From the NCBI RefSeq assembly GCF_036245885.1, contig NZ_BTTX01000008.1: 64,000 nt of DNA, one strand, 5' to 3'. A program made the position numbers and the translations under genes. Below are positions 27,841 to 44,872 of this stretch, one piece after another (positions within the stretch are counted from its first letter, which is position 1; each line of letters begins with the position of its first letter). A model generated the notes under the pieces. The model was not told where the DNA came from and did no database searches. It saw only the letters and a program-made list of their open reading frames with translations. The stretch is from Corallococcus caeni (GTDB lineage Bacteria > Myxococcota > Myxococcia > Myxococcales > Myxococcaceae).

Positions 27841-29556
27841 CTAGCAGTCCACCGGGCCTTTCAGGCTGGTAACGGTCGCTTCGATTTCTTCACACCCACC
27901 CAGCGTTTTCGCCCCGTGGGCCGCCAGCTTGATGCCCAGCACGTCCCCCACCGCCACGTCCGCCATGGAACGCACCACCCCGCCGTCCCGCTGGCGGAAC
28001 GCCACCGCGTAGCCGCGCGACATCACCTTCAGGGGGCTCAGGGCGTCCAGCCGGCCCCCCAGCCGCCCGAAGTGCGTCTGCGCGGACGACAGCATGCCCC
28101 GCTGCAGCTCCAGGAGCCTTGAGCGGGCCTGCGCCACCCTCGCCCGCTCGGTGGCCACCCGCGCCGTGGGCGAGGCCCGCTCCAGGCCCAGCCGCGCGTC
28201 CGCCAGCGCGCCCCGCCGCCGGGACACGCCCGCGCGGGCCGCCTCCGACAGGCGCATGGCCAGCTTGAGCAGATGGGCCCGCTGCTCCGACAGCCGCGTC
28301 TGGGGCCGCGAGCGCTGCAGCCGCTCCTGGAGGCCGCGCAGCGTCTCCCGGTCCTGCCGCACGCGGGGCCGCAGCACGCGCATCATCGCCTCCACCTGTT
28401 CGGACAGGTGCAGCCGCTGATGGTTCACCTCGCGGCGCGGATCCGGCAGCCGCGCGCGAAGCTGGCCCTGGCGCTCGCGCAGCTCCAGCACCCGCCGCTC
28501 CATGGCCCGGCGCAGGCGGCCGGACTGCGTGGCCAGCGTCAGCTCCAGGTCCGCCAGCACCGGCGCCAGCCGCTCCGCCGCCGCGCTGGGCGTGGGCGCG
28601 CGCAGGTCCGCGACGAAGTCGGAGATGGTGAAGTCGATCTCGTGCCCGATGGCGGACACCACCGGCACCGGCGAGGCGAAGATGGCCCGCGCCACCCGCT
28701 CCTCGTTGAACGTCCAGAGGTCCTCCACGGACCCTCCGCCGCGCGTCACGACGATGACGTCCACGTCGGTGCGCCCAAGCCGCTCGATGGCCCGCGCCAC
28801 GTCCTCCGCGGAGCCCTCGCCCTGCACGCGCGCGTCCGCCAGGAGCACGCCCAGCCGGGGGTTGCGCGAGTGCAGCACGCGCAGGAAGTCCTGGAGCGCC
28901 GCGCCGGTGCGGCTCGTCACGACGCCGATGCGCCGGGGCAGGAACGGCACGGGCCGGGGCGGCCGCACGCGCCGGTCGCCGATGAGCCCCTCCGCCGCCA
29001 GCCGCTGCTTGAGCTGCTCGAACGCGAGCGCCAGCGCGCCCTCGCCCACCGGCTCCAGCCGGGACACGATGAGGCTGTAGCGGCCCTGCGGCTCGTACAG
29101 GTCCACGCTGCCTTCGGCCAGCACCTCCATGCCGTCGCGCAGCGCGAAGCGCATGCGCCCCGCCATGGACGCCCAGACCTTCGCGTCGATGGAGGCGTCC
29201 GCGTCCTTGAGCGTGAAGTACCAGTGGCCGCGCGCGTTGGCGCCCCGGAAGCTGGACACCTCGCCGCGCACCAGCACGCGCGGGAAGCGCGACTCCACCG
29301 TCTGCTTGATCTGCCGGGTGAGCTCGCCCACCGACAGCACCGTGCGCTCCGGGCGCGGCGGCGGCGTGACGGCGACGGGCAGCGGCGGCGGGGCGGCTTC
29401 GGCCACCGGCGCGGGCGGCGGGGCCACGGGCGGCTTGCTCGGGCTCGCGGCCTTCGCGGGAGGGGGGCGCAGGGGTGGCAGCAGCGACGTGCCGAACAGG
29501 TCGCCCTGCCCCGGCTCCTCGGCCGGGGGCGGCTCCAGCCCCTTGCGCTTCTTCAT
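27841..29556 (-). CDS. xseA: Exodeoxyribonuclease VII large subunit with a Pro/Ala-rich N-terminal extension
   Basis: OB-fold and catalytic core: LSVGELTRQIKQTVESRFPRVLVRGEVSSF...GHWYFTLKD...VVTRGGGSVEDLWTFNEE. ATG at 29554-29556, overlapping the upstream FHA gene stop. Confidence 0.85.
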   Translation of the reverse strand: MKKRKGLEPPPAEEPGQGDLFGTSLLPPLRPPPAKAASPSKPPVAPPPAPVAEAAPPPLPVAVTPPPRPERTVLSVGELTRQIKQTVESRFPRVLVRGEVSSFRGANARGHWYFTLKDADASIDAKVWASMAGRMRFALRDGMEVLAEGSVDLYEPQGRYSLIVSRLEPVGEGALALAFEQLKQRLAAEGLIGDRRVRPPRPVPFLPRRIGVVTSRTGAALQDFLRVLHSRNPRLGVLLADARVQGEGSAEDVARAIERLGRTDVDVIVVTRGGGSVEDLWTFNEERVARAIFASPVPVVSAIGHEIDFTISDFVADLRAPTPSAAAERLAPVLADLELTLATQSGRLRRAMERRVLELRERQGQLRARLPDPRREVNHQRLHLSEQVEAMMRVLRPRVRQDRETLRGLQERLQRSRPQTRLSEQRAHLLKLAMRLSEAARAGVSRRRGALADARLGLERASPTARVATERARVAQARSRLLELQRGMLSSAQTHFGRLGGRLDALSPLKVMSRGYAVAFRQRDGGVVRSMADVAVGDVLGIKLAAHGAKTLGGCEEIEATVTSLKGPVDC

Positions 29557-31301
29557 CGCGACAGCTTCTCGACCCAGCCCTGGGCCTTGCCGTGCAGCTC
29601 GTCGTCGGGCGGCGTCATCGTGACGACGTCGCGGAACTTGGGCAGCGCGTCCTCCGGGCTGGAGTCCTTGATGGAGTAGGCCTGCATGTACAGGTCCTTC
29701 GCCTTGCCCTTGAGGTCGTTGACGATGTTGGCGGCGCCCGTGTGGTTGGGGTCCGCCTGGAGCGCGCGGCGGGCGAACTCCATGGCGCGCGACCACTGGC
29801 CGGCGGCCTTCGCGCCCGCGGCGCTCTTGTAATAGATGGTCGACGCGCGGGTGCCCGCGTTGCGCCCCATCTTGCTGCCGCGCCCGTCGGTGATGTCCTT
29901 GTCCAGCGCGAGCAACCGGGTGAGGCCCTTGGCGTCCAGTTCCTCCAGCTTCTTGTAGAGGTTGCCGAACTCCGTCACCTGCCCCATCAGCTGCTTGCAC
30001 TGCGGCGTCTTGGCCGCGCACGCGTTGAGGATGGCCACCGCGCCGGACGTGTCACCGTCGCGGAAGCGGTCCACGGCGGGCTCCCACGGCTTGGGCGCCG
30101 CGGCCACGCGCACCGGATCCGGACGGGTCAGGTCCGCGATGACGCGCACGGCATCGTCGTTCACGAGCTTGCCGTCGCGGTGCTCCGGGAAGGTCGCGAG
30201 CACGTCGTCGGTGATGGCCTTGGCCTTCTGCACGTTCTCCAGCTGGCGGGTGTCCAGCAGCTGCTTGGCTTCCTTCGTGCGCTTGTCGGCGGCGTCCGTC
30301 AGGTTCTTGCGCGCCGTCTTCAGCTGCTCGTAGAGCTGCGTGTCGGCGCTCACCTTCGCGATGGACGCCTTCGCGCTGGCGAGCTCCCCCTTGTCCAGCG
30401 CCGCCTGGGCCGTGCTCAGGTGGTTCTGGTTGGGGATCTCCCGCTCCGCGGCCTTGAGGTAGTCCTCCACCCCGGGGTAGTCCGGCGCCTGCGCGTGGAG
30501 CTCCTCCAGCTTCGCCTTGGCCTGCTGCCACTGGCCCTCGCGCACCAGGTTCTTGGCCTCCTGGAAGAGGCCGCCCAGCTGCTCGCGGTACTGGCGCTGC
30601 TCCGCCTCGATGCGGCCCTGCTCCTCCTGCTGGTGCCGCATGCGCGAGCGCGCGACGCCCAGGCCCGCGAAGAGCAGCACCAGCACGGCGGCGCCCGCGA
30701 GCTTCATCCGCATGCGCTTGCGCTGCATCTCCGGCGTGAGCTCCGCGGCGGCCGCGGCCCGCGCCGTCTGCGGGCGCGCACGGCCCTCGCGGGAAGGGCG
30801 CGAGGGCACGGCCGTGGGACCGCGCCCCGCCGCCGTGGACGGACGGGGCCGGGAGCCGGAGGGGGCCTGCACCTTGGCGGTGCTGTTGGCGGTGTCCTCG
30901 TAGCGCAGCTCCGAGTCGCCCAGCGTGATGACGTCCCCGTTGGCGAGGAGCGTCTCCTCGGAGATGGGCTCGCCGTTGACGATGGTGCCGTTGCCGGAGC
31001 CCATGTCGCTGACCATCCAGCCGGCGGACTCCTTGCGCAGCGTCACGTGCTTGCGGGAGACCGACGTGTCCTGGATGCAGATGGGGTTGTCCGTGGCGCG
31101 GCCGACCGTGTACTCGAGGTCGGCGAGCGCGAACTCCTCACCCTCCATGGGACCGGCGATGACGACGAGCTTCGCGGGGCGGGCCGCGGCGGCACCGGCG
31201 GTGGACCGGCGGACCGGCGCGCGCTGTCCGGTCCCGGAAGAGGGCGTACCGGATGTAGGCCGTCGGCGGGCGGGGGGTGGTGCGTTCGACATGGCGGTCA
31301 C
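29553..31301 (-). CDS. FHA-domain membrane protein with a TPR/coiled-coil periplasmic region
   Basis: FHA core YTVGRATDNPICIQDTSVSRKHVTLRKE...GSGNGTIVNGEPI, one TM (AGAAVLVLLFAGLGVA), then a helical extracytoplasmic domain. GTG start. Confidence 0.75.
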   Translation of the reverse strand: MTAMSNAPPPARRRPTSGTPSSGTGQRAPVRRSTAGAAAARPAKLVVIAGPMEGEEFALADLEYTVGRATDNPICIQDTSVSRKHVTLRKESAGWMVSDMGSGNGTIVNGEPISEETLLANGDVITLGDSELRYEDTANSTAKVQAPSGSRPRPSTAAGRGPTAVPSRPSREGRARPQTARAAAAAELTPEMQRKRMRMKLAGAAVLVLLFAGLGVARSRMRHQQEEQGRIEAEQRQYREQLGGLFQEAKNLVREGQWQQAKAKLEELHAQAPDYPGVEDYLKAAEREIPNQNHLSTAQAALDKGELASAKASIAKVSADTQLYEQLKTARKNLTDAADKRTKEAKQLLDTRQLENVQKAKAITDDVLATFPEHRDGKLVNDDAVRVIADLTRPDPVRVAAAPKPWEPAVDRFRDGDTSGAVAILNACAAKTPQCKQLMGQVTEFGNLYKKLEELDAKGLTRLLALDKDITDGRGSKMGRNAGTRASTIYYKSAAGAKAAGQWSRAMEFARRALQADPNHTGAANIVNDLKGKAKDLYMQAYSIKDSSPEDALPKFRDVVTMTPPDDELHGKAQGWVEKLSR

Positions 31302-31328
31302 CGCGTCCTGCTGAGGGGGGCACGGGCC

Positions 31329-34300
31329 CTAAAGCTCGTGCTCATAGGCTTTTTCCAGCGCCAGATTGTGGCAGCGATGCTCGGCGGTAGGGAAGCGTCT
31401 CCGCACGTCTTCGAGGGTCGCGACCGCATCCCGTCGGCTGCGGAACTGAACCGCCCGCTGGAATTGCATCATCAACTGCCCGCAGCGGTGGTCCAGCTCC
31501 GTTGAAATCTGGGCGATCCGCTCCCGGACGTCGTCGTACAGCTCCGGCTTTTCGTCGAGCGCTTCCAGGGTGATCCACGCGGCGCGGTACTCCCGCCACG
31601 CCTTGAACAGGTTCTCCGCGCCCACGTCCTTCAGCTCGTAGAAGCGGGCCCCGGTCTTGGCGGACTCCCGGGCGGAAGCGACCAGCTGATCCGGCGGCAG
31701 CTCGGGCACCGGGATGACTTCCAGGCGCAGGTTCCAGATGCGCCAGGGGTCGCGGCCGGGCGGGTTGAGGGCGTTGTCGAAGAGCAGCTGGTTGTTGGCG
31801 TTGCGGCGCAGGAGGCTGGGGGGCAGGACCTGCTCCAGCTCGCGCTCGGCCGTCTGCGCCGTGTCCGGGGGCACCCACCCCAGGGACACGCCGTTGAGGG
31901 ACAGGTTGACCTCGTCCCGGGCGATGTTGCTGGCCTGGTAGTGCAGCACGGCCACCGCGCGCGTGGGGGACACGAAGCGGAAGTCGAAGAGCTTGTCGTC
32001 GGCGTGCACCCAGCGCACGCCCTCCCCCAGGCCGAAGGAGTCCGGCACCGGCTCCATGCCCAGCTTGAAGGGTTCGCGGCCGGGGAGCCGGATCGCCGAG
32101 GGCACCACGAGCGCCACGAGCAGCGTCACCAGCGCCAGCGCGCCCAGCCCCGCCAGCGACGCGAAGCCGATGCGCCGGGGCAGCGACTGGCGCTGCCAGA
32201 AGAGGAGGAACTGGCCCTTGAGCGTCTTGCCCAGCTGACGCCGCTTGCGCGCCTTGTCGGCGGCGGACGACGGTTCGACCTTCGCGACGACCGTCACCGG
32301 CCCCTTGCGCACGGGCTCCATCGCGGAGGCTTCCAGTCCGGGAGGGAGGGGCTGGGTGGCGTTGCCCGCCTCTTCCGGGACGAGCGCGGGAGCCAGCAGC
32401 GGCGCCTCGCCGGGCATCGGTCCGGCGTCGAGCTTCGGCGGAGACGCGGACCGGTTCCGGCCCACGAGCGTGACCGGCTCCGGCTCCTGCTCCGGCGAAG
32501 GCGGCGGGACGGGGGGACTCCAGGTCGGCGGAGGCGCCAGGGCGGGAGCAGAGGGAGCGTTCTGGCCCGCGAAGGTGGGCGATGCCCGGGTCTCCTCCGG
32601 AGTGTCCGCGGGGATGGCGTCGTCCTGGCCGACGAAGGTCGCCGGTTCGGGGGCGCCTGGCGCGGGGGGAGTCGCCACCGCGACGCCAAAGCGCAGCGGC
32701 CTGGCCACCAGCGGGCTGACCGGGGTGATGGGCCGGAGGTCGAGGACGGTCCGCTCCTCGGGCTCCTCCATCGTCGGCACGGGCAGCGCGGACGAAGCGT
32801 CCAACGGCGGCGCGTCTTCCACCCGGGGCGGCGCTTCCGGGGTCGCCGGAATCGCCATCAGCGTGTGCTCCTCGGGCTCCTCCAGGTCCAGGACGGGCGG
32901 CACGGGGGCCAGCGTGGAGGCGGGCACGGGCGAATCCACGGTGGAGATCGCCATCAGCGTGCGCTCCTCGGGCTCCTCCAGGTCCAGGACGGGCAGCACG
33001 GGGGCCAGCGCGGAGGCGGGCACGGGCGAATCCACGGTGGAGATCGCCATCAGCGTGCGCTCCTCGGGTTCGTCCGGCAGCACCGGAGCGAGTTCCACGG
33101 GAGGCGGGGCGACGGGAGGCCGTGCCGGCGGAGGCGGAGCCACGAGCCCCGGCGGCGTCATCAACGGCAGGCCGGACGCGGAAGCCGCGGACACACGTGC
33201 CGCGCCACGACCCAGCTCGGGACGGTTCAGCGCGGGCGCGCCGACACCGGGGAGGTTCGCGCCAGCCTTGCGCTTCGCGGAAGCGGCCGGCTCCCCGGGG
33301 CCTGGGGCCGCGGCCTTCGCAGGCGCTGGAGCAGCTTCCACCGGGACAGGGGCGCCCACCACGGGAAGCTCACGCGCCGTCGGGTGCGCGGGCTCGGGAA
33401 CCCCCGCGGGCATGGAGGTCGCGCCCGGTACGGACGACCGGCCTGAACCCGAGGCACCGACGGCGGGCAAGCCCGGCGCCGAGGCTCTTCCCGAGGTGGA
33501 AGCCCCTGGGGCTGGAGGCGTCGCGCCGGCCTTGTTCGCCGGGGACGCCCCCACCGCGGGCAAGCCCGGCGCGGAGGATCTTCCCGACGTGGAAGCGCTC
33601 GCCCCGGGAGCCTTGGCCGGAACTCCGGCCACCTGACCTCCGGGCGCGGAAGCCCCAAGCACGGGAGGTCCAGCGGGAGCCCTGTTCGGAGCAGCTGCTT
33701 CAGCAAGCCCCGGAGCGGAAGGCCCCAGCACCGGAGGTACCGCGGAGGGCTTCGCCGGCGCGGAAGCCCCCAACACCGGAGGCCCGGCGGGAGCCCTGCT
33801 CGGAACGGCCGGTCCCGATGCCGCAGCTCCCAACACGGGAGGCCCCGGGGGAGTCCTGGCCGGAGCGGCACCGACCCCTGGCAGATCCGGCGCGGAGGGC
33901 CGCTTCGGCGTGGCGCTCGGCATCACCGGCATCACCGGAGCAGCCGCCCCACCCTTCGCGGCGGGCACGGCCATCCCGGGGCGCGGCAGGGACGCGGGCC
34001 GCGCCATCGCGGGCATCGACTGCTGGTAGCTCGTGGGCGCCGCTTCGATCTCCGCGAGCGAAGCCTGCTCCACGCCCTGCGGCGACACCCGCGCATGCGG
34101 CGGCGCGAGCGCGCGCCGGATAGGTCGGGTGACGTCGTCGTCATCCTCCGGCGCCACCCAGACGAACGTGAACTCCACCGGACCGACGGTGATGCGGTCG
34201 CCGTCGCGCAGCTGCTTCTCGCCGCCCAGCGGCTGGCCGTTCAGCTGCGTGCCGTTCGCGCTGCCGACGTCCTCGGCGAAGTAGCGCCCATCCCTCGCCG

Positions 34301-34376
34301 TGATGCGGGCATGACGCCGGGAGACACCGTGGTCATGCAGCACCAGGTCGTTCTCCGAGGTCCGGCCGATCTTCAC
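31329..34376 (-). CDS. Giant FHA-domain protein: N-terminal FHA, ~600-aa Pro/Ala-rich repetitive linker, one TM, C-terminal extracytoplasmic domain
   Basis: FHA core VKIGRTSENDLVLHDHGVSRRHARI...GSANGTQLNGQPL; TM FASLAGLGALALVTLLVALVV. The encoded N-terminus continues upstream of the first GTG (ILLTITQGLQVGRELAFEQAE looks like FHA beta-1/2) with no canonical start codon, so the true start is unresolved. Confidence 0.75.
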   Translation of the reverse strand: MKIGRTSENDLVLHDHGVSRRHARITARDGRYFAEDVGSANGTQLNGQPLGGEKQLRDGDRITVGPVEFTFVWVAPEDDDDVTRPIRRALAPPHARVSPQGVEQASLAEIEAAPTSYQQSMPAMARPASLPRPGMAVPAAKGGAAAPVMPVMPSATPKRPSAPDLPGVGAAPARTPPGPPVLGAAASGPAVPSRAPAGPPVLGASAPAKPSAVPPVLGPSAPGLAEAAAPNRAPAGPPVLGASAPGGQVAGVPAKAPGASASTSGRSSAPGLPAVGASPANKAGATPPAPGASTSGRASAPGLPAVGASGSGRSSVPGATSMPAGVPEPAHPTARELPVVGAPVPVEAAPAPAKAAAPGPGEPAASAKRKAGANLPGVGAPALNRPELGRGAARVSAASASGLPLMTPPGLVAPPPPARPPVAPPPVELAPVLPDEPEERTLMAISTVDSPVPASALAPVLPVLDLEEPEERTLMAISTVDSPVPASTLAPVPPVLDLEEPEEHTLMAIPATPEAPPRVEDAPPLDASSALPVPTMEEPEERTVLDLRPITPVSPLVARPLRFGVAVATPPAPGAPEPATFVGQDDAIPADTPEETRASPTFAGQNAPSAPALAPPPTWSPPVPPPSPEQEPEPVTLVGRNRSASPPKLDAGPMPGEAPLLAPALVPEEAGNATQPLPPGLEASAMEPVRKGPVTVVAKVEPSSAADKARKRRQLGKTLKGQFLLFWQRQSLPRRIGFASLAGLGALALVTLLVALVVPSAIRLPGREPFKLGMEPVPDSFGLGEGVRWVHADDKLFDFRFVSPTRAVAVLHYQASNIARDEVNLSLNGVSLGWVPPDTAQTAERELEQVLPPSLLRRNANNQLLFDNALNPPGRDPWRIWNLRLEVIPVPELPPDQLVASARESAKTGARFYELKDVGAENLFKAWREYRAAWITLEALDEKPELYDDVRERIAQISTELDHRCGQLMMQFQRAVQFRSRRDAVATLEDVRRRFPTAEHRCHNLALEKAYEHEL
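32851..33075. repeat. Intragenic 96-bp tandem repeat (~2.3 copies) encoding the 32-aa unit LEEPEE[RH]TLMAISTVDSPVPAS[AT]LAPV[LP]PVLD
   Basis: Near-identical 96-nt units start at 32851, 32947 and 33043 (seen directly in the sequence), inside the giant FHA gene. Confidence 0.85.
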
Positions 34377-34449
34377 CTCGGCCTGCTCGAAGGCGAGCTC
34401 CCGTCCGACCTGGAGCCCCTGGGTGATGGTGAGCAGGATGGGCAGAGGA

Positions 34450-35340
34450 CTAGCCCCCGACGTTGCCGAACATGAACTGGAACACGATGGGCCCGAAGAG
34501 CACCATGAACACCGTCGGGAAGATGCAGGCGATGAGCGGGAACAGCATCTTCACCGGGGCCTCGCCGGCCAGCTTCTCCGCGCGCTGCGTGCGGTCGATG
34601 CGCATCTGCGTGGACTGGATGCGCAGCACCTTGCCCAGGCTCGTGCCCATCTTGTCCGCCTGGATCAGCGCCGTGACGAACGTCGTCAAGGACGGCAGGT
34701 CCACGCGCACGATCATGCTCTTGAGGCCCTCCTCACGCGTCTTGCCCATCTTGAGCTGCTTGAGCACCAGCTGCAGCTCCTCGCGCAGCGGGCCCTGGCG
34801 GCCCTTCTCCACCACCTTCGCCAGCGCGCCCGTGAAGTCCATGCCCGCTTCCACCGACAGCGTCAGCAGGTCCAGGTTGTACGGAAGCGCGCGGCTGATG
34901 GCCAGGTGACGGCGCTTCACTTGATCGTTCAACCAGATGAGCGGATAGAACAAGCCCAGCAGCATCACCAGCAGTGACCAGGCCAGGTTCATCCCGATGC
35001 CGTTGACGACGAACAGGCCGGCCAGCAGGGCGAAGAAGGCGCTGATCTCCTGCAGCGCCATGATGTCCTCGGGCTTGTACTGCGACGGCTCGCCCGCCTT
35101 GATGAGCTTGCGGCGCGTCTTGGACTCGTAGCCCGGCCACATGAAGCGCCGGTTCATCGCGCCCAGCTTGCGGATGGCGACGGAGCCCGCGCCCTTCACG
35201 CCGCCCGCGGACTCGTCCCGGACTTCCGACAGGAAGCGCTCCAGGACGTTGGAGTACAGGCCGATGCCCAGGAACGCCACCGCGCCCGCGGTCAGCAGTG
35301 CCGAGCCGCCCATCAGCAGAAATGTCAGGACTTCCTGCAC
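34450..35340 (-). CDS. Tad/Flp pilus assembly inner-membrane platform protein (TadC-like, T2SS F family)
   Basis: GspF/TadB/TadC-type helical-bundle-plus-TM architecture; 296 aa. GTG start. Confidence 0.75.
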   Translation of the reverse strand: MQEVLTFLLMGGSALLTAGAVAFLGIGLYSNVLERFLSEVRDESAGGVKGAGSVAIRKLGAMNRRFMWPGYESKTRRKLIKAGEPSQYKPEDIMALQEISAFFALLAGLFVVNGIGMNLAWSLLVMLLGLFYPLIWLNDQVKRRHLAISRALPYNLDLLTLSVEAGMDFTGALAKVVEKGRQGPLREELQLVLKQLKMGKTREEGLKSMIVRVDLPSLTTFVTALIQADKMGTSLGKVLRIQSTQMRIDRTQRAEKLAGEAPVKMLFPLIACIFPTVFMVLFGPIVFQFMFGNVGG

Positions 35341-35353
35341 GGTGCGCCTCGTT

Positions 35354-37094: not shown

Positions 37095-37240
37095 GGTTCT
37101 AGGTCCTCCAGAACGGTGGGGCGCCGTCGTGGCGGCAGGACAGCTTTGGACGAGGGGGCGATGCCAGGGCGCGAACGGGGCAAGATGTTAGCCATGCCCC
37201 AGAGCAGGTGTCAAAACCACCTCTCGTGACAAAGCGGAAT

Positions 37241-37326: not shown

Positions 37327-37620
37327 TCAGGGGAACGGCAGGTTCAGCACGAAGTAGAACGAGTCGTAATAAATCTGGTACGCCTCGAGGAACAGGTCGA
37401 TGACGTTGGTCTGCTTGTCCTCGTTCCAGCGGATCTTCACCGTGGCGCCGATGACGAGCCCGACGATCAACACCCAGTTGATCATCGAGTACTCCACCAT
37501 GGCCTGGCCACGGCGGATCCGGCGGGGCGGAGACTTCCGGGGGCTGTTCACGGGGGGAGCGTGCACGTCCGACCTCATGGCCCCATTATCCAGGACCCGG
37601 GCCTCCCACGCATCGGTCAT
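37327..37620 (-). CDS. flp: Flp/Fap-type prepilin (class III signal peptide, G/QAMVEY processing motif)
   Basis: RRIRRG/QAMVEYSMINWVLIVGLVIGATV matches the Flp motif G/XXXXEY followed by a hydrophobic helix. The predicted mature pilin is 59 aa. An alternative start at 37578 would give a 24-aa leader. GC content is visibly lower than in neighbouring genes. Confidence 0.7.
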   Translation of the reverse strand: MTDAWEARVLDNGAMRSDVHAPPVNSPRKSPPRRIRRGQAMVEYSMINWVLIVGLVIGATVKIRWNEDKQTNVIDLFLEAYQIYYDSFYFVLNLPFP

Positions 37621-37638
37621 GTGGACTGCCCCCCTCCC

Positions 37639-39057
37639 CTACTGCGCGGGCGTGGAGGGGGCGACCTTGGCGGGAGCCGCGGGAGGCGAGGCCTGACGCA
37701 GGCGGCGCTGGGCCAGCTGGGCCGCGCTGGAGCCGGGGGCCTCGGTGATGATCTGCCCGCAGACGGTGGCGGCTTCCTGGCTCCGGCCCTGGACGGACTC
37801 CGACTCGCAGAGCCGTGAGAGCAGACCCAGTCGCTCGCTGCCCGTGGCTCCGGCGGCGAGTGCGGCGCGCAGCAGCTGTGCTTCCCGGGCGCGGTCCCCC
37901 TGGCTCGCGGCGGCCTGGGCCTGGGCGGACAGGTCGCGTGACGTCATCGCATCTTCGGAGGAGGCGGACTTCTCCACGGGCCTGGGCTTCGCGGCCTCCG
38001 CGCGGGTGGACTCCTTCCGCTGTTCGGGGGCTGAGAGCGTCGTGGTCGCGGGCGCGGGCTGGCGGCCCAGCGCGCCCGTGGCGACGGGAGCCACGGCCTC
38101 GGCCATGGGCGCGGAGGCCACGGGAGGAGGCGGCGGGGCCGCGCCCGCGGCCATGCCTTCGGCTTCATCGTCCAGGGCGAGCCCACGGCCATAAGACGCA
38201 CCGCCCAGGCGCAGGGAGTCGTTCTTCGCGACCTTCGCCTTGTCGCTGCTTGCACCGGGTGCGCGCCGCGGCGCGGGGGCGTCCTTCATGGCGAGGGCGC
38301 TGTCGGCCTCCTCTTCCTTCGGAGGCGGAGACATCTCCTGCGCGACCGCGGCGGCCGGGGCCGGCTCGAGCGCCGCGAACTCGTCCGCGTCCCGGACGGC
38401 CTTGGCCATCTTCTTCTTCGGTGCGTCGGCGTCCGCGCGACGCCGCTCCAGCAGCGCGCCACCGCTGCCCGCGTTCATCCAGTCCGACGGACGGGCGCCG
38501 GCCGCGCCCTTGAGCTCTGCCTGCGCGTCGCCCTGCTTCCGGTCCGCGAGCTGCTCCATCGGCTCGGGCGCGGCCGTCGCCAGGGGCGCGCTCGAAGGCG
38601 CGGGCGGGGGCATCGCGGCGCGCGGGGCGGGAGACTCCGCCTTCTGCTTCGCCGCCTCCATCGTCGGGCTGGAGGCCTTCTGCGTCAGGTTCGGCTCCAG
38701 GTGGAGGTTCTCGCTGACCGTCAGCGTCAGGAGGCCGAAGGTGCTCACCGTGGCCAGGCCCACCGCGGGCAGGAGCCAGCGGCGCCAGCGCGAGGGCTTC
38801 GGCTCGGGCCCCGCGGCGGCGCGGCGCGCGGACTGCTGCGCGTACGCGAGCAGCGACTCCAGGCCCGCGTCCGGCGCGGGCTCCGACGACAGCTGCGCCA
38901 TGGTGGTCCGCACGCCGCGGATGTCCGCCAGCGCCTTCGTGCAGCGCGCGCAGCCCTGGACGTGCTGCTCCAGCGACCGGGCCTCCGACGCGGGCAGCTC
39001 GCCGTAGGCGAAGTCGAGGAGCCGGTCCTCGTGCGCGTGGGCATTCTGGGCACTCAT
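37639..39057 (-). CDS. Anti-sigma factor: zinc-binding N-terminal domain, one TM, ~330-aa Ala/Pro-rich periplasmic region
   Basis: N-terminal anti-sigma motif LLDFAYGELPASEARSLEQHVQGCARCT (H-x3-C-x2-C). TM WRRWLLPAVGLATVSTFGLLTLTV. ATG overlaps the sigma gene stop (ATGA). Confidence 0.75.
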   Translation of the reverse strand: MSAQNAHAHEDRLLDFAYGELPASEARSLEQHVQGCARCTKALADIRGVRTTMAQLSSEPAPDAGLESLLAYAQQSARRAAAGPEPKPSRWRRWLLPAVGLATVSTFGLLTLTVSENLHLEPNLTQKASSPTMEAAKQKAESPAPRAAMPPPAPSSAPLATAAPEPMEQLADRKQGDAQAELKGAAGARPSDWMNAGSGGALLERRRADADAPKKKMAKAVRDADEFAALEPAPAAAVAQEMSPPPKEEEADSALAMKDAPAPRRAPGASSDKAKVAKNDSLRLGGASYGRGLALDDEAEGMAAGAAPPPPPVASAPMAEAVAPVATGALGRQPAPATTTLSAPEQRKESTRAEAAKPRPVEKSASSEDAMTSRDLSAQAQAAASQGDRAREAQLLRAALAAGATGSERLGLLSRLCESESVQGRSQEAATVCGQIITEAPGSSAAQLAQRRLRQASPPAAPAKVAPSTPAQ

Positions 39058-39701
39058 CCCGCCACCGTCCTTCCATCCTCCGACAGGTCGCCATCCACGC
39101 CCAGCTCTCCCAGGCGGCGGCGCAGGCCCTCCAGCGCGTAGCGCATCCGGCTCTTCACCGTGTTCTCGGACACGCCCGTCACCTCGGCGATCTCCTTGAA
39201 CGGGATGCCGCTGTACTCGCGCAACACGAACACCTCGCGCTGCTCCTCCGGCAGGCCCGACAGGGCGCGCTCCAGCAGGGGCCGCAGGCGCGCGTTGTGC
39301 GCCCCGCGCTCCGGACTGGCGCCGGCATCCGGCAGCCCCTCGCCCAGCGGACGTCCCTCGTCCCCGTCGGCACCCGCCGTGGGGGCTTCCAGGGACGTCG
39401 CCTGGCGGTAGCTCTCTTTGCGCGTGCTGTCCACGCAGAGGTTCCTCGCGATGGTGTACAGCCAGGTCGTGAACCGGGCCTTGGGCTCGTATTCCCGGGC
39501 GCTGCGGACCACCTTGAGCCACGTCTCCTGCAGCACGTCCTCCGCCCGTGCCCGCTGCCCCACGAAGCGCAGGATGAAGTTGAACACCGGCGCGCGGTGC
39601 TTGCGCACCAACGCTTCGAACGCGCGCGCGTCTCCCGCCTGGAAGGCGAGCATCAGCTGCTCGTCTGAGGTTTCGGGTGCCAAACTTCCCCCAGTGCCCA
39701 T
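39054..39701 (-). CDS. ECF (group IV) RNA polymerase sigma factor
   Basis: Sigma-70 region 2 (ETWLKVVRSAREYEPKARFTTWLYTIARNLCVD) and region 4 (LPEEQREVFVLREYSGIPFKEIAEVTGVSENTVKSRM). The start is taken at the second M (39701); the ORF opens at 39734. Confidence 0.85.
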   Translation of the reverse strand: MGTGGSLAPETSDEQLMLAFQAGDARAFEALVRKHRAPVFNFILRFVGQRARAEDVLQETWLKVVRSAREYEPKARFTTWLYTIARNLCVDSTRKESYRQATSLEAPTAGADGDEGRPLGEGLPDAGASPERGAHNARLRPLLERALSGLPEEQREVFVLREYSGIPFKEIAEVTGVSENTVKSRMRYALEGLRRRLGELGVDGDLSEDGRTVAG

Positions 39702-39765
39702 GAAGCCACGGGTGCCATCCCCTTCACCGCCCACGGCCTGTAACGGACAGCCGTGCGCGAAAGGT

Positions 39766-40173
39766 CTATTCCGGCCGTGGCCGCCGGTAAGTGGCGAGAA
39801 TGACAGGGACCGCCACCCCTGTCACCAGAAGTGCCTGCGCCAGCAGCACCGCCGGCAGCGGGCGCTGCACGTGCACGTACAGCGAGCGGCCAAGCCCCAC
39901 TCCCAGGAGGACGCCCGTCAGCGTGCGCAGCGCGTTGGAACCGGACGCGGGCCGGAAGCGTCCCACCGCCCAGTCCACCAGCGCGGGCAGCGTGAGGGCC
40001 AGCACCACCGGCACGTCCCACTCCCACCGGAGCGGCGCCTTCAGCGCGAACAACCCCAGGAACACGGCGGCGAGCACCGGGTACGTCCCCAGGCACCGCG
40101 CGCACACGCGCACGCCCGCGAGCACGTACGTGCGGTTGTACTCATCCGCGTGATGATGGCTGAGCCAGAACAC
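39766..40173 (-). CDS. DUF2085-like small membrane protein with a CxxC motif
   Basis: Four predicted TM helices and VCARCLG. The proposed start is GTG at 40171-40173, overlapping the oppF-like gene by 32 nt. Start assignment is low confidence. Confidence 0.45.
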
Positions 40174-41193
40174 CGCCGCCTCCTCCGGACACGGAAACAG
40201 CGGTCCCGTCCTGCACTTCCCGCGAGTCCCCTTCCGCCAGGAAGCACGCCGCGGCGTGGCCTCCGCCCAGCGGATACAGCGGCGGCGACTCGCGCCGGCA
40301 GCGCTCCATCGCATGGGGGCAGCGCGGGTGGAACGCGCAGCCGGTCGGCGGCGACAGCGGCGAGGGCGGCTCTCCCGGCAGGAGCAGTCGCGCGCGGGGG
40401 CGCTCCGGATCCGGCACCGGCACCGCGGACAGCAGGGCCTGCGTGTACGGGTGGCGAGGCCCGGCGTACAGCGCCCGCGACGGCGCGACCTCCACGATGC
40501 GGCCCAGGTACATCACCGCCACGCGCGTGGACACGTACTCCACGATCTTGAGGTCGTGCGCGATGAAGACGTAGGTGAGCCCGCGCTCGCGCTGCAGGTC
40601 CACCAGCAGGTTGACGATCTGCGCCTGGATGGAGACGTCCAGCGCGCTGATGGGCTCGTCCGCCACCACCAGGTCCGGACGCAACGCGATGGCACGTGCA
40701 ATGCCGATGCGCTGACGCTGGCCGCCGGAGAACTCGTGCGGGTAGCGCTGCCGCGCCTCGCGGGGCAGCCCCATGGCGTCGAGCAGCGCCAGCACCTCGT
40801 CCTCGCGCGCCCTGCCCTTCGCGAGGCCATGGATGGCGAAGGGCTCCGCGAGGATGTCCCCCACCGTCATGCGCGGGTTGAGCGACGCGTACGGGTCCTG
40901 GAAGACGAGCTGCATCTGCCGGCGCAGCGGCCGCAGCTCGCGCTGCGACAGGCCGGTCAGCTCGCGCCCGGCCACGCGGATGGAGCCGGAGGTCGGTTCG
41001 AGGAGGCGCAGCACCGCGCGCCCCAGGGTGCTCTTGCCGCAGCCGCTCTCCCCCACCAGGCCCAGCGTCTCGCCCCGGGCGACGTCGAAGGACACGCCGT
41101 CCACCGCGCGCACCGTGCCGCGCGTGCGCCCCAGCAGGCCGCCCTTCACCGGGAAGTGCACCTTCAGGTCGCGCACCTGGACCAGGGGTTCGC

Positions 41194-41197
<4 letters not shown>
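40142..41197 (-). CDS. Oligopeptide/dipeptide-type ABC transporter ATP-binding protein (OppF/DppF-like); no permease or binding protein in the window
   Basis: Walker [10 protein letters not shown], signature FSGGQRQR, Walker [14 protein letters not shown]-terminal oligopeptide-ABC extension with HPYT. It carries an unusual Gly-rich tail. ATG at 41195-41197. Confidence 0.8.
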
Positions 41198-42227
<1,030 letters not shown>

Positions 42228-42231
<4 letters not shown>

Positions 42232-43220
42232 TTCTGGGCCAACTCCTCCAGGAACTCCGCCTCCTGGATGAGCCCCTTGCGGATGAGCAGGCGGATGAGG
42301 CTCGCGACCATGCGCGCGGGCTTCACCTTCTCCGTGTCCAGGCTGGCCTCCTCGCCGCGCGAGATGCGGTCGATGTCGTCCAGCACCGCCAGGTCCTCCT
42401 CGGAGAAGTCCGGCGTGGGCGTGAGCGCCATGGACGGCTTCGCGCCCTGCGCGGCGCCGCCGAAGAGCACCACCGGCACGCGCGGCTTGCTCGGGTCCTC
42501 GGGCTCGGAGGGCGGAGGGGGCGGCGGCCGGGCCGCGGCGGGCGGCGGCGGGGGACGCGGGGCCTTGGGGCGGGGCTTGGAGCCCAGGATGTCTTCCAGC
42601 ACCTCCGCGCCGTCGACGCCCGACTCGTGCGGCGGCGGTGGAGGCAGGTCCCAGTCCAGCGCCGGCGGCGCGGGCGGGCGCGGCGGCGCCGGGGGCCGCG
42701 CGGAGGCGGAAGGCGGCGACGGCAGGATGTCCGGCGAATCGTCCTCGTCCATGTCCATCGGTTCAGCCTCCACGATGTCCAGGGGCTCGCCCCGGCCGCG
42801 CGCGAGCGCCTGCTCCATGTCATCCGACGCGGCGACGAATACCTTGAGCTGCTTGCGCAGCTGGAAGCGCAGCTCGTCCACCAGCATCAGGTTGCCCGGG
42901 TCCTCCACCGCGACGTGGATCTTCTCGCTGCGGCCGTCCTGCTCCGAAGCGAAGAGGAGCACCCGGTGCTCGCTCTGGAAGTCCATGGACACCAGCGAGG
43001 ACACCCCGTGCGGGATGTACTCGGGGATCTCCACGAAGGGCAGCTCGTGCTGCGCCGCCAGCGCCCGCGCGATGTCCCGGCCCGTGCACAGGCCCATGGA
43101 CACCAGCACCTCGCCCAGCTTGCGGCCCTGGCCGCGCCTTCCGGAAGCCAGGGCCTGCTTCACCTGCTCGTCCGTCACCACTCCGGCCTGGACGAGGAGT
43201 TCACCAATCTTCTTGCGCAT
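42228..43220 (-). CDS. Standalone MshEN / GspE-N-terminal (T2SSE_N) domain protein with a Pro-rich C-terminal half
   Basis: Two 24-residue MshEN c-di-GMP-binding motifs: [24 protein letters not shown] and [24 protein letters not shown]. No ATPase domain. Confidence 0.7.
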
Positions 43221-43229
43221 GGCCGGGGG

Positions 43230-43982
43230 CTACCGCTTGACCTTGGCGAGGTATTCCTCGCGGGAGAAAACACCCTTCTCGATGAGCAGCTCCACCATGG
43301 CCTTCAGCGCCGCGACCTCCTTGCGCTGGACCTCCTCCACGCTCTTGAGCAGCTCCGCGGGGCTGCCGGAGGCGGCCTGACGGGGGGCCTCCGCGGGGGG
43401 CGGTGGCCGGGGCGGAGCGGCGGCGGCGGGCTTGGGGGACATGGCGACGGCGGCGGCCGGGTCCAGGTCCTTGAGGTTCTTCACGACGGTGCGGCCCTGC
43501 GCGTCCACCACCTTGAAGTTGGTGTCCGCGTCCTCCAGCTCCGCCGTCTCCTCGTAGAGGCGCGCGAACGCCCGCGCCACGGAGGTGCGCCCCGCCACGT
43601 TGGCCACGATGCGGCACTTGGACAGGGCCCGCAGCTCGTCCAGCACCCGCACGTTGAGCGGGTCCGACATGGCGACCACGAGCGTCTTGCCGTCGTCGCG
43701 CAGCTGCAGCGGCACCACGGAGAAGTCGCGCGCGGTCTGCGCCGGGATCTTGGACTTCACGTGCGGCGGCACCATCTGCACGGCGTCCAGGTTCACCGCC
43801 GGCATGCCGAGCTGCTTCGACAGGGCGCGCACGAGGATGTCCTCGGAGACGAGGTTCATCCGGACGAGGATCTCGCCCAGCTTTCCGCCCCATTTGGCCT
43901 GCTCGGCGAGCGCCGCCTTGAGCTGGCTCTCCTGCAGGACGTTCGCCTTGATCAGCAGTTCTCCGAGCTTGATCTGTGCCAT
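43230..43982 (-). CDS. Standalone MshEN / GspE-N-terminal (T2SSE_N) domain protein
   Basis: Motifs KLGELLIKANVLQESQLKAALAEQ and KLGEILVRMNLVSEDILVRALSKQ. Second T2SSE_N lobe LVVAMSDPLNVRVLDELRAL. Pro-rich C-terminus. No ATPase domain. Confidence 0.7.
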   Translation of the reverse strand: MAQIKLGELLIKANVLQESQLKAALAEQAKWGGKLGEILVRMNLVSEDILVRALSKQLGMPAVNLDAVQMVPPHVKSKIPAQTARDFSVVPLQLRDDGKTLVVAMSDPLNVRVLDELRALSKCRIVANVAGRTSVARAFARLYEETAELEDADTNFKVVDAQGRTVVKNLKDLDPAAAVAMSPKPAAAAPPRPPPPAEAPRQAASGSPAELLKSVEEVQRKEVAALKAMVELLIEKGVFSREEYLAKVKR

Positions 43983-44041
43983 GTCGTGCGCGCCATAGTA
44001 CCCGGTTTGCGCCGGGGCGCTGTCTTTCGACGCCTGGAAGC

Positions 44042-44872
44042 TCAGGAACCCGGCGCGGGGGGCGCGGGCGACACCGTGCCCCCCGAGCGGACCTCCTGGC
44101 CCCGTGCGTCGACGTCCACCACCCTGGCCCCCTCGGGCGCCACCAGCTCATAGAGCGTCAGGTCCGGGCGGCCGTTGAGGCGGATGTCCGTGTACTTCAG
44201 GTCCAGCTTCGTGTCCGCCGTGGAGGCGATGAGGTGGACCTTGCCGGGGAAGAGCTGGTCGCCGCGCTGCTCGAAGTCCTCGAACGCCAGGTCGTAGCCC
44301 GGCACACCCCGGACCTCGCTCTTCACCACGCGCAGGTGCTTGGGGTCCACGCGGAGTGTCTGTGTCGCGGGGCCCCGCTGGAGCTTCAGCACGTACACCC
44401 GCTCCTTCTCATCCAGCTCCAGGGTCATGGACTCCGGAGGCAGGAGGGGGACCTGGCCCAGCATCACCGCCACCAGCTCCTCGCTCGGCAGGACGACAGG
44501 CAGGAAGCGGGACACGTTCTCCGCGCTCGCCGGGCCCTGGAGGTACGTGTTCTCCCCCGCCTGGTAGACGCCGAAGCGCTCTCCGTTGGAGACGAGCGAG
44601 GCCACCGGGCGGTTGAAGAAGTCGTACGTCTCCAGGTGGATGAAGCCCGGGCGGGTGATGGAGAGGAACGTGGAGAGGGTGCCGCTGCCCTGGGGCGAGT
44701 CGACGTGCAGCTTGGCGTCGCCCTCCAGGTTCACGACCTGCGCCTGCCGCTCGCGCACGTGCTGGTAGAGCGTCTGGGCATCCTCGATGCGGCCTTCCGG
44801 ACCGAACTCGAGGCGTTTGGGGCAGGCCGAACAGAGGAGGGCCAGGAAGATTGCGGCGGCTGCGCGGTTCAT
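44042..44872 (-). CDS. Lipoprotein, DUF4292/LolB-like
   Basis: Signal peptide and lipobox MNRAAAAIFLALLCSAC. Beta-rich; the length and pattern fit the DUF4292 (LolB-fold) family, but the family call is tentative. Confidence 0.55.
   Translation of the reverse strand: MNRAAAAIFLALLCSACPKRLEFGPEGRIEDAQTLYQHVRERQAQVVNLEGDAKLHVDSPQGSGTLSTFLSITRPGFIHLETYDFFNRPVASLVSNGERFGVYQAGENTYLQGPASAENVSRFLPVVLPSEELVAVMLGQVPLLPPESMTLELDEKERVYVLKLQRGPATQTLRVDPKHLRVVKSEVRGVPGYDLAFEDFEQRGDQLFPGKVHLIASTADTKLDLKYTDIRLNGRPDLTLYELVAPEGARVVDVDARGQEVRSGGTVSPAPPAPGS

Follow-up and report, generated by a model that had tools for sequence, protein, structure and literature searches.

In the window (the whole 64-kb stretch of Corallococcus DNA analysed here), the region 29553-44872 very probably consists of the ortholog of Myxococcus xanthus kil cluster II, in a reduced form without Tip4, and an adjacent MXAN_4667-4661-type operon, arranged as separate transcription units. 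The segment 29553-37551 would encode the Corallococcus counterparts of KilK, KilB, KilG, KilH and two bitopic FHA proteins. Their partners, namely cluster I (ATPase KilF, secretin KilC, peptidase KilA and KilD), the major pilin KilP and the Tip complexes, would be encoded elsewhere. Together, these products are predicted to build a Tad-like pilus at prey contact sites for contact-dependent killing, a function ascribed to Corallococcus because of its orthology to M. xanthus, where Kil was shown to be needed for contact-dependent prey killing (PMC8460266, PMC12075869). The segment 37639-43982 would be the MXAN_4667-4661 ortholog, with two start sites of its own, one ahead of the first gene and the other ahead of the sigma gene.

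Genes were called by third-position GC, and domains were assigned using Pfam and NCBIfam, with curated cut-offs passed unless stated otherwise. The region holds 14 minus-strand genes (Table 1) within a co-directional run of 20 consecutive genes, from 44872 down to 23633. Adjacent genes overlap by 1, 4 or 32 bp or are separated by gaps of 5-87 bp, apart from a single 232-bp gap after flp. Downstream of 29553, the order is xseA, xseB, a single-domain response regulator gene, ispA, dxs and tlyA, and the FHA + TPR gene and xseA share 4 bp, at the stop of the one and the start of the other. In the 64-kb window, Pfam scans of the called genes detected neither a Tad ATPase nor a secretin, CpaE/TadZ, prepilin peptidase or Opp permease. 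The first-pass annotation had described an uninterrupted minus-strand array of 20 genes, the domains of the 14 genes, the intergenic distances including the 232-bp gap, and a window without CpaF/TadA ATPase, secretin, CpaE or prepilin peptidase; the gene calls, profile matches and measured spacing agree with it on all of these. At the upstream end, exbB-exbD (44915-46114) are divergent from the DUF4292 gene, which is set off from the MshEN1 gene by a 59-bp gap and a -10-like element. The DUF4292 protein scored 44.3 bits against NCBIfam LolB1_Flavo, under the cut-off of 50, and its gene is probably a separate LolB-like lipoprotein gene outside the pilus system.

Table 1. Genes and predicted promoter elements of the region, in window coordinates
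Feature	Coordinates	Strand	Basis
DUF4292 outer-membrane lipoprotein, LolB-like, inferred ortholog of MXAN_4668	44042..44872	-	Pfam DUF4292, 55.6 bits
Predicted MshEN operon promoter: -10 TACTAT 44000-43995, start A at 43987	43987..44000	-	conserved TAnnnT; M. xanthus start site
MshEN1, stand-alone MshEN, predicted c-di-GMP receptor, ortholog of MXAN_4667	43230..43982	-	Pfam MshEN
MshEN2, stand-alone MshEN, predicted c-di-GMP receptor, ortholog of MXAN_4666	42228..43220	-	Pfam MshEN
OppD/DppD-type ABC ATPase, ortholog of MXAN_4665	41194..42231	-	ABC_tran + oligo_HPY
OppF/DppF-type ABC ATPase, ortholog of MXAN_4664	40142..41197	-	ABC_tran + oligo_HPY
DUF2085 membrane protein, ortholog of MXAN_4663	39766..40173	-	Pfam DUF2085
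Predicted internal promoter GTGACA-17-CATTCT, start near 39788, within DUF2085 gene 3' end	39788..39825	-	match in M. xanthus locus L083
Candidate ECF-type autoregulatory promoter AGAYC-N15/16-CGTT in sigma leader	39742..39767	-	conservation
ECF sigma factor, ortholog of MXAN_4662	39054..39701	-	Sigma70_r2/r4
zf-HC2 anti-sigma factor, ortholog of MXAN_4661	37639..39057	-	Pfam zf-HC2; gene order of L083
kilK, Flp-type adapter minor pilin, ortholog of MXAN_4655	37327..37551	-	identity to KilK; prepilin motif
Sigma-70-type promoter-like TTGACA-18-TAACAT upstream of kilB	37185..37214	-	sole match in 27000-46500
kilB (CpaB), ortholog of MXAN_4652	36276..37094	-	RcpC 81.2 bits + SAF 31.1 bits
kilG, TadB-like inner-membrane platform protein, ortholog of MXAN_4651	35354..36199	-	T2SSF 62.7 bits; position as in Seef table
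kilH, TadC-like inner-membrane platform protein, ortholog of MXAN_4650	34450..35340	-	T2SSF 67.1 bits
Bitopic FHA protein, YscD/PrgH-like cytoplasmic domain, ortholog of MXAN_4649	31329..34445	-	FHA + Yop-YscD_cpl
Bitopic FHA + TPR protein, ortholog of MXAN_4648	29553..31292	-	FHA, Yop-YscD_cpl, TPR

The pilus genes were assigned by profile and by identity to M. xanthus proteins. KilB scored 191.6 bits against TIGR03177 (pilus_cpaB equivalog; cut-off 71) and is 91% identical to its M. xanthus counterpart over 211 aa. KilG and KilH, both above the T2SSF cut-off of 25.2 bits, have four hydrophobic segments apiece, and each FHA protein has a single transmembrane segment (residues 763-781 in the large one and 196-214 in the FHA + TPR protein). 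Translation of the large FHA gene most likely begins at CTG 34445 and yields 1038 aa, which corrects a first call of 31329-34376. For kilK, GTG 37551 is the most likely start, giving 74 aa rather than 97. Its product is 72% identical to M. xanthus KilK and carries a hydrophobic segment and the prepilin motif (G/XXXXEY), which reads RGQAMVEYS here and is invariant as RGQAM(V/L/I)EYS in 10 KilK orthologs. This Flp ORF matched no Pfam or NCBIfam profile, Flp_Fap included. The assignment of the pilus genes to the Tad family, made at first pass, is supported. KilK is an adapter minor pilin in M. xanthus (Herrou et al. 2025, PMC12075869), and on sequence grounds the single local Flp is identified as this adapter, not as the major fibre-forming pilin KilP. 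The first-pass annotation was silent on this identity and on the missing Tip4 cassette.

Comparison with M. xanthus supports the orthology of the whole cluster. Kil cluster II of that species (MXAN_4648-4661) shows the same order of FHA + TPR, FHA, KilH, KilG, KilB, KilK and zf-HC2, and the same separation from the ATPase/secretin/peptidase cluster (Seef 2021, PMC8460266; Herrou 2025, PMC12075869), which in M. xanthus is cluster I, MXAN_3102-3108 (Seef 2021, PMC8460266). The gene order and domains match MXAN_4648-4655 and 4661, so the fit to the split-locus Tad-like Kil system, suggested at first pass, holds. The M. xanthus locus L083 reads sigma-antisigma-TadE-Tad-TadE-x-x-KilK-x-x-CpaB and aligns to the window at 72-91% protein identity. 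However, the Tip4 minor pilin genes kilL4, kilN4 and kilM4 (MXAN_4658-4660) and four unknown-function genes (MXAN_4653, 4654, 4656 and 4657), located in M. xanthus in the interval from the anti-sigma gene to kilB, are absent here; this interval spans about 8 kb in M. xanthus and about 0.5 kb, holding kilK, in the window. Only kilK lies in it here and in Corallococcus loci L001 and L008, and forms of about 0.5 kb or about 6-7 kb are both widespread among relatives. The cluster II gene order recurs in every related locus that is long enough, with some loci lacking the large FHA gene. KilN4 orthologs were found in eight other genera, and none of the 120 best matches was named Corallococcus sensu stricto; because organism names are attached to only about a quarter of the database proteins, the absence of Tip4 from Corallococcus is indicated, not proven.

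The locus shares CpaB, two T2SSF platform proteins and a G/XXXXEY Flp-type pilin with canonical Tad/Flp systems (Caulobacter cpa, Aggregatibacter tad). Unlike these, it is split, with no TadZ/CpaE, TadA/CpaF, secretin or TadV nearby; bitopic FHA proteins are attached, and the local Flp is an adapter instead of the fibre pilin. In the predator Bdellovibrio bacteriovorus too, the Tad genes are scattered, and genes for TPR, FHA and c-di-GMP-binding proteins lie next to them (bioRxiv 10.64898/2026.07.08.737194). However, the c-di-GMP-binding proteins of that species are of the PilZ type, where the window has MshEN proteins, and no ECF sigma or OppD/F pair is described there.

The accessory operon begins with the MshEN1 gene. 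MshEN1 and MshEN2 scored 64.8 and 56.2 bits, respectively, against the NCBIfam c-di-GMP_motif (cut-off 38), and MshEN1 matches PilB/PilF/MshE N-domains in the PDB. Both depart from the relaxed 24-residue pattern of Wang 2016: at position 10, each of the two motifs of MshEN1 has N, and MshEN2 deviates at position 24 of motif I (G) and at position 12 of motif II (C). The DUF2085 protein has two clear hydrophobic segments. The best NCBIfam matches of the OppD/DppD-type ATPase are DppD/OppD, under equivalog cut-offs, and the OppF/DppF-type ATPase scored 416.6 bits against NF008453 (cut-off 408). Permease and binding-protein genes of an Opp/Dpp importer, which may lie elsewhere in the genome, are absent from the window and from the orthologous loci. 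We know of no role for OppD/F-type ATPases in any type IV filament system. The ECF sigma factor scored 269.7 bits against PRK12513 (cut-off 206) and is 86% identical to its M. xanthus counterpart; it contains Sigma70 regions 2 and 4 only, and its gene overlaps by 4 bp that of a partner with an N-terminal zf-HC2 domain, as expected of an ECF sigma/anti-sigma pair. MXAN_4661 is listed as a 'putative zinc-finger', the last gene of cluster II (Seef 2021 supplementary table, PMC8460266). The text of the literature searched does not mention MXAN_4662-4667, and these genes have no published function, in agreement with the earlier remark that the accessory genes had no assigned function in a Tad-type system.

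In M. xanthus, MXAN_4667-4661 are listed as 'Operon 24' among c-di-GMP-associated genes, with no function, c-di-GMP binding or Kil connection reported (Kuzmich et al. 2022, PMC8844925, Table S2); its end at MXAN_4661 was set by a 50-bp distance rule. Cappable-seq in that species revealed a strong start site 5 nt upstream of MXAN_4667 and an internal one 66 nt upstream of the sigma gene MXAN_4662 (PMC8844925). All seven genes are present in the window, with corresponding lengths and identical overlaps, and the sequences at the two start sites, mapped in M. xanthus alone, are conserved in it. The TAnnnT element before MshEN1 is conserved in 9 loci, and the predicted start A corresponds to the site at -5 of MXAN_4667. 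The predicted internal promoter also occurs in L083, just upstream of position 2852, which is the -66 start site of MXAN_4662. Upstream of kilB, the core of the promoter-like element shows no variation across six loci that represent five named taxa (two Corallococcus, M. xanthus, a Myxococcaceae MAG, an Archangium MAG and Hyalangium), with the spacer around it poorly conserved; from this footprint, kilB and the following genes would be transcribed from their own conserved sigma-70-type promoter. Because of the mapped M. xanthus start sites and the kilB element, the array is predicted to comprise several transcription units, instead of the single co-transcribed array of the first-pass annotation.

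The accessory genes adjoin the pilus genes throughout the Myxococcaceae genomes and metagenome contigs examined. However, xseA-xseB-ispA-dxs-tlyA downstream and acyl-CoA dehydrogenase/MaoC upstream are equally conserved in order, so that adjacency to kil does not single out the accessory genes; the synteny anticipated earlier was found but is not discriminating. We are somewhat inclined to the reading that the accessory operon and the DUF4292 gene have an envelope- or c-di-GMP-related role unconnected with Kil, and that their place beside kil derives from collinear inheritance of one block (DapB-like/MaoC/acyl-CoA dehydrogenase, exbBD, accessory genes, kil and xseA-tlyA). The operon's own start sites, the 17-22 mostly uncharacterised MshEN proteins of M. 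xanthus and the resemblance of DUF4292 to LolB1 all agree with this reading. So does the variable accessory content: the L009 lineage keeps kil and sigma without MshEN2 and both ABC genes, the deep MAGs L010 and L017 have an HD-GYP-type gene in place of ABC/DUF2085, and the MAG locus L065 has the accessory module with no CpaB within 10 kb. The set is therefore not fixed, contrary to the view of accessory genes and pilus as one module. Against inheritance of the block alone stands L010, a deep-branching MAG in which the accessory/kilB adjacency persists at 56% (sigma) and 45% (KilB) identity, a divergence at which general synteny would be expected to have been lost; its contig lacks the downstream end, which precludes a comparison of housekeeping synteny there. 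This persistence is some evidence for a real link between the accessory genes and Kil. Moreover, the variable pilin cassette has kept its place between the anti-sigma gene and kilB and has not driven the two apart.

A narrower link, in which the ECF sigma/anti-sigma pair senses the envelope or prey contact and drives kilK in the window and both Tip4 and kilK in M. xanthus, with the platform operon and the MshEN/ABC genes independent, is considered unlikely. In all Myxococcaceae loci examined, the variable pilin cassette, whichever genes it contains, comes directly after the anti-sigma gene on the same strand, and the gap of at most 87 bp between the anti-sigma gene and kilK showed no terminator-like site. 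The low expression of kilK and the Tip genes accords with tight control. The sigma gene is also accompanied by a conserved ECF-like element, AGAYC-N15/16-CGTT, which immediately precedes the sigma match in 14 of 16 loci, Anaeromyxobacter included. However, this element has one site in the whole window and never stands consistently before kilK, kilM4 or kilB; its position is downstream of the start site mapped in M. xanthus, where prey-free cells gave no start site attributable to it. Both the sigma gene and the element are also present in Anaeromyxobacter, at loci where no kil gene lies within 10 kb. Furthermore, the best 120 database matches of the sigma factor are all at least 79% identical (named genera among them: Myxococcus, Pyxidicoccus, Archangium, Cystobacter, Stigmatella and Vitiosangium), and such unusual conservation suggests a general envelope role.

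It is very unlikely that all 14 genes form one co-transcribed Kil module whose accessory genes regulate and energise the pilus: the single strand, the short gaps and overlaps, the adjacency conserved down to L010, the inclusion of MXAN_4661 in cluster II with the proposal that unknown cluster genes encode a contact-sensing cascade (Seef 2021, PMC8460266) and the spatial determinants of Kil assembly still to be accounted for speak for it, but the separate start sites and kilB element, the equally syntenic flanks and the gene losses and replacements described above speak against it, as do sigma relatives of about 50% identity (the level across Myxococcota) that stand alone in Anaeromyxobacter, Kofleriaceae and Polyangiaceae, a pilus already powered by the Tad ATPase KilF, and MXAN_4666/4667 transcripts that drop slightly in starvation (PMC8844925), whereas the kil clusters are reported as induced (Seef 2021, PMC8460266).

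Under the preferred reading of two adjacent but separately transcribed units, a link between the signalling operon and the pilus is plausible, and a role of the accessory genes in Kil is rather doubtful. Lying directly downstream of the anti-sigma gene, kilK, and in other genera the Tip4 genes as well, may receive read-through from the sigma promoters, and such read-through into pilin genes would be the one concrete route for an action of the accessory operon on the pilus. We see little likelihood that the operon is an upstream control of Kil, in which c-di-GMP sensing by the MshEN proteins and sensing of the envelope or prey contact by the anti-sigma factor decide the timing and the adapter and tip pilins, with the pilin cassette as output.

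Contact-dependent killing by myxobacterial predators centres on the Kil pilus; the machine has already been published, and this locus adds little to it. With Tip4 lacking, the Corallococcus locus represents a naturally minimal cluster II. Of the Tips of M. xanthus, Tip4 alone can kill independently of the needleless type III system; therefore, killing by Corallococcus should fully depend on the other Tips and that system. The seven uncharacterised genes beside the pilin cassette, found there in all relatives examined and with start sites mapped in M. xanthus, provide a short and defined list of candidate Kil regulators.

Gene calling by codon-position G+C in the window (71% G+C) gave 20 consecutive genes from 44872 to 23633, all on the minus strand, and their domains are listed in the table below. 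Neighbouring genes in this array overlap by 1, 4 or 32 bp or are separated by gaps of 5 to 87 bp, and the gap 3′ of flp is 232 bp. The array and the domains named in the first-pass annotation were thereby borne out, and the homology searches placed CpaB and the two platform proteins in their families. Among the called genes of the rest of the window, Pfam detected no Tad ATPase, secretin, CpaE, prepilin peptidase or Opp permease, and the earlier claim that the first four are missing here was upheld. The receiver-only response regulator sits between xseB and ispA and so interrupts the otherwise classical xseB-ispA-dxs order; it recurs in several of the related loci and is lacking in others. Elsewhere in the window, the bactofilin and ParB_N genes presumably resemble the bacNOP-padC cluster of M. 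xanthus. The large TPR protein may, by position, be the ortholog of MXAN_4639, which is tabulated beside the kil genes in the supplement of Seef et al. (2021, PMC8460266).

Coordinates, strand and basis of assignment of features in the window and in two related loci (array genes in order)
Feature	Coordinates	Strand	Basis or remark
DUF4292 lipoprotein	44042-44872	-	Pfam/NCBIfam
Two stand-alone MshEN proteins	42228-43982	-	Pfam/NCBIfam
Two ABC ATPases, both with Opp/Dpp C-terminal domain		-	Pfam/NCBIfam
DUF2085 protein		-	Pfam/NCBIfam
ECF sigma factor		-	Pfam/NCBIfam
zf-HC2 anti-sigma factor		-	Pfam/NCBIfam; gene overlaps sigma gene
Short Flp-like ORF		-	Motif and orthology
CpaB		-	Pfam/NCBIfam
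Two T2SSF platform proteins		-	Pfam/NCBIfam
Large FHA protein		-	Pfam/NCBIfam
In-frame peptide upstream of large FHA gene	34376-34445	-	
FHA+TPR protein		-	Pfam/NCBIfam
xseA, xseB		-	Pfam/NCBIfam
Receiver-only response regulator	27044-27433	-	Pfam/NCBIfam
ispA, dxs, tlyA		-	Pfam/NCBIfam
Equivalent of MXAN_4667 start site	43987		A, 7 nt downstream of TACTAT
Equivalent of MXAN_4662 start site	~39788		A, preceded by GTGACA-17-CATTCT
Predicted kilB promoter	37214-37185		TTGACA-18-TAACAT
Large TPR protein	17216-19273	-	
Two bactofilin genes and ParB_N-domain gene	12786-16313	-	
ParB_N-domain gene	13365-14801	-	
Receiver fused to HD_5 (HD-GYP-type) domain	50637-51758	+	~6 kb upstream of MshEN genes
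HD_5 (HD-GYP-type) protein, locus L010	7892-9490		In ABC-ABC-DUF2085 position
HD_5 (HD-GYP-type) protein, locus L017	8921-9946		In ABC-ABC-DUF2085 position

The kil cluster II of M. xanthus spans MXAN_4648-4661, and its published table gives 4648 as FHA+TPR, 4649 as FHA and PrgH-like, 4650 as KilH, 4651 as KilG, 4652 as KilB, 4655 as KilK, 4658 as KilL, 4659 as TadG-like, 4660 as KilM and 4661 as 'putative zinc-finger', with no identity assigned to 4653, 4654, 4656 and 4657 (Seef et al. 2021, PMC8460266). For comparison, 80 related loci were obtained from a genome scan anchored on the sigma protein, which is identical to one in Corallococcus assemblies, and the M. xanthus locus (L083) was retrieved separately. 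The latter reads ABC, ABC, DUF2085, sigma, zf-HC2, TadE, Tad and TadE, followed by two uncharacterised genes, a 75-aa gene, two further uncharacterised genes and CpaB. Compared with their M. xanthus counterparts, the proteins of the window were 91% (KilB), 86% (sigma), 82% (DUF2085), 79-80% (ABC ATPases) and 72% (KilK) identical. Gene order and these identities of 72-91% identify the window, by orthology, as the Corallococcus kil cluster II together with the genes upstream of it; the split-locus Kil apparatus of M. xanthus was thus the right system to name, as the order in the Seef table and the identity to the M. xanthus locus both indicate. The Kil system itself has been described before, and Seef et al. 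(2021, PMC8460266) already stated that other Myxococcales have it. The new elements here are comparative.

The Flp-like ORF has a conserved part that begins with 'NSPRK' and an invariant RGQAM(V/L/I)EYS motif. No Pfam or NCBIfam profile matched it, and its identity as the KilK ortholog is therefore based on the motif and orthology. KilK is the adapter minor pilin for Tips 1, 2 and 4, and the fibre-forming pilin is KilP (mxan_5121), which is encoded elsewhere in M. xanthus (Herrou et al. 2025, PMC12075869). The 'one Flp prepilin' described earlier is indeed a single Flp-type gene, but by orthology it is this adapter and not the major pilin.

The interval between the anti-sigma gene and kilB differs strongly between the two organisms: in M. 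xanthus it is ~8 kb long and contains KilM4, KilN4, KilL4, KilK and four uncharacterised genes, whereas in the window it is ~0.5 kb long and only kilK lies inside. Both layouts are common among relatives, the long one in Myxococcus, Hyalangium, an Archangium MAG and many metagenome contigs, and the short one in three Corallococcus loci and several deeper lineages. Among the best 120 matches, KilN4 orthologs (to 44% identity) were found in Myxococcus, Pyxidicoccus, Hyalangium, Aggregicoccus, Melittangium, Archangium, Cystobacter and Vitiosangium, and the sole ortholog among them named as Corallococcus was from 'C. macrosporus'; only about a quarter of the database proteins carry organism names. 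We take 'C. macrosporus' to group with Myxococcus. Loss in Corallococcus of the cassette for Tip4 (the minor-pilin set KilL4/KilN4/KilM4) is the most economical reading.

By orthology with M. xanthus, where these roles were shown, KilG and KilH would form the inner-membrane platform, KilB would provide the periplasmic link to the secretin, and KilK would join the Tip complexes to the KilP fibre in a machine that is built at the site of prey contact and on which killing depends. Each of the two FHA proteins is predicted from its sequence to be bitopic, with the FHA domain in a cytoplasmic N-terminal part, a single membrane segment and a large C-terminal part; both would be suited to docking phosphothreonine partners at the platform. 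For the large FHA gene, the ortholog of MXAN_4649, the start codon is almost certainly CTG 34445 and not GTG 34376 (minus strand). This CTG follows the kilH stop by 4 nt, the in-frame peptide upstream, PILLTITQGLQVGRELAFEQAE, supplies the first two FHA strands, and alignment of the extended protein to solved FHA domains begins at residue 4. Orthologs have ATG or GTG at this position, CTG is common to several lineages, and the shorter form is used by automatic annotation in L001. The gene is lacking in L098, L099, L102, L109, L131, L136, L143, L153, L155, L158 and L162, where kilH is directly followed by the FHA+TPR gene; an MXAN_4649-type gene is therefore no fixed part of cluster II. Full-length KilB/CpaB paralogs occur in five metagenome contigs (L107, L117, L123, L134 and L145), at 64-78% identity to the KilB of the window, two per locus in three of the five and with no TadB/TadC behind. 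Those of L117 are flanked by an unrelated ECF sigma factor, three Ser/Thr kinases, a sigma-54 activator and a PLD-family protein, and kinases adjoining KilB copies are suggestive in view of the FHA proteins of Kil.

Start sites have been mapped genome-wide in M. xanthus, where MXAN_4667, 4666, 4665, 4664, 4663, 4662 and 4661 form 'Operon 24' under an operon rule of gaps <=50 bp (Kuzmich et al. 2022, Table S2, PMC8844925). One site lies 5 nt upstream of MXAN_4667, with relative read scores of 1253 and 631 during growth and of ~2.5 once cells had starved for 6 h; the other, 66 nt ahead of the sigma gene MXAN_4662, was recorded at every time point with scores of 150-370 (PMC8844925). Equivalents of both occur in the window, the second within the 3′ end of the DUF2085 gene. 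The element in the 232-bp gap before kilB is the only sigma-70-like match in 27000-46500, and its core TTTGACACC...GG(A/C)TAACAT is invariant across six aligned loci (two Corallococcus, M. xanthus, a Myxococcaceae MAG, an Archangium MAG and Hyalangium). The flanking spacer is poorly conserved and the upstream gene varies among the six; this phylogenetic footprint is the predicted kilB promoter. In 14 of 16 loci, Anaeromyxobacter included, a conserved AGAYC-N15/16-CGTT element lies immediately ahead of the sigma match. It occurs once in the window, before the sigma gene, and did not recur consistently before the kilK, kilB, FHA or MshEN genes in the window and the 16 related loci. Its designation as 'the sigma promoter' was dropped, as the mapped M. 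xanthus start site lies upstream of the motif; at best it is a candidate second promoter of ECF type, silent without an inducing signal. An intrinsic terminator after kilK was rejected (GC hairpins in the 232-bp spacer were no better than in shuffled sequence, z = -1.47), and a consensus scan of the same spacer for terminators found none. The mapped start sites, the kilB footprint and the AGAYC element argue for several transcription units in place of the single co-transcribed array proposed at first. Four units are envisaged: DUF4292 by itself; the genes from MshEN1 to anti-sigma, which have a further start ahead of sigma; kilK, possibly by read-through; and kilB with the genes after it.

The order ABC-ABC-DUF2085-sigma-antisigma-(pilin cassette)-KilB-KilG-KilH-(FHA)-FHA/TPR is kept in the Myxococcaceae genomes sampled and in those metagenome contigs that are long enough to reveal it (KilB identity 62-93%). 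These contigs also retain xseA-xseB-(RR)-ispA-dxs-tlyA downstream and, where the sequence reaches, exbD-exbB, acyl-CoA dehydrogenase, MaoC and a DapB-like gene upstream. Synteny was ruled out as evidence of function: it reaches plainly unrelated housekeeping and metabolic genes, and adjacency therefore cannot carry a functional argument. The expected adjacency of accessory and pilus genes in relatives did hold, but the accessory set is inconstant. L009 has DUF4292, one MshEN, DUF2085, sigma, anti-sigma and kil, and lacks the second MshEN and the ABC genes; the deep-branching Myxococcota MAGs L010 and L017 carry DUF4292, a pair of MshEN genes, an HD-GYP-type gene and then sigma; L065 carries DUF4292-MshEN-ABC-ABC-sigma, and no CpaB gene lies within 10 kb. 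The arrangement in L010 and L017 would pair a c-di-GMP receptor with a phosphodiesterase. In Anaeromyxobacter, Kofleriaceae and Polyangiaceae, sigma relatives of ~50% identity occur by themselves.

Both MshEN proteins pass the threshold of the NCBI MshE-related c-di-GMP motif domain and align to the N-domains of PilB, PilF and MshE. Binding of c-di-GMP is predicted for both but not assured, because neither is a strict match to the 24-residue pattern of Wang 2016. In total, 17-22 MshEN proteins occur in M. xanthus, most of them unstudied. At the C-terminus of both proteins of the window, a proline-rich linker leads into a similar short helix (LLIEKGVFSREEYLAKV in one, a 17-residue counterpart in the other) that is reminiscent of half an MshEN c-di-GMP motif. 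The ABC ATPases are of the ordinary OppD/OppF type without local permeases. The DUF4292 protein, whose gene is divergent to exbBD, was likened slightly under threshold to the Flavobacterium lipoprotein insertase LolB1, and had no match in a sequence search of the PDB. A literature search on MXAN_4662-4667, Kil with anti-sigma and Kil with c-di-GMP returned nothing connecting these genes to Kil, and none of the papers covered by it names MXAN_4662-4667 in its text.

We consider it somewhat probable that the accessory operon merely adjoins the kil genes, with no functional link. The synteny is equally strong for plainly unrelated genes, the accessory set differs in L009, L010, L017 and L065, and MXAN_4666 and MXAN_4667 go slightly down in starvation (log2 change -0.4 to -0.8; PMC8844925), opposite to the kil clusters, which are reported as starvation-induced (Seef et al. 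2021, PMC8460266). On the other side, L010 has MshEN genes and the sigma pair beside KilB-KilG-KilH at only 45% KilB identity, and the variable pilin cassette always lies directly behind the anti-sigma gene. Sigma control of that cassette is doubtful, and the full regulatory and energising Kil module first proposed, accessory genes included, is quite improbable.

Beside simple adjacency as the preferred reading, the comparison adds, as a candidate regulator, a seven-gene operon that is defined but uncharacterised, together with the conserved footprint of a kilB promoter and, in Corallococcus, a minimal form of cluster II that lacks Tip4. Tip4 is the Tip whose killing activity is independent of the needleless type III system in M. 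xanthus, and its apparent absence from Corallococcus would yield a testable prediction for how Corallococcus kills.
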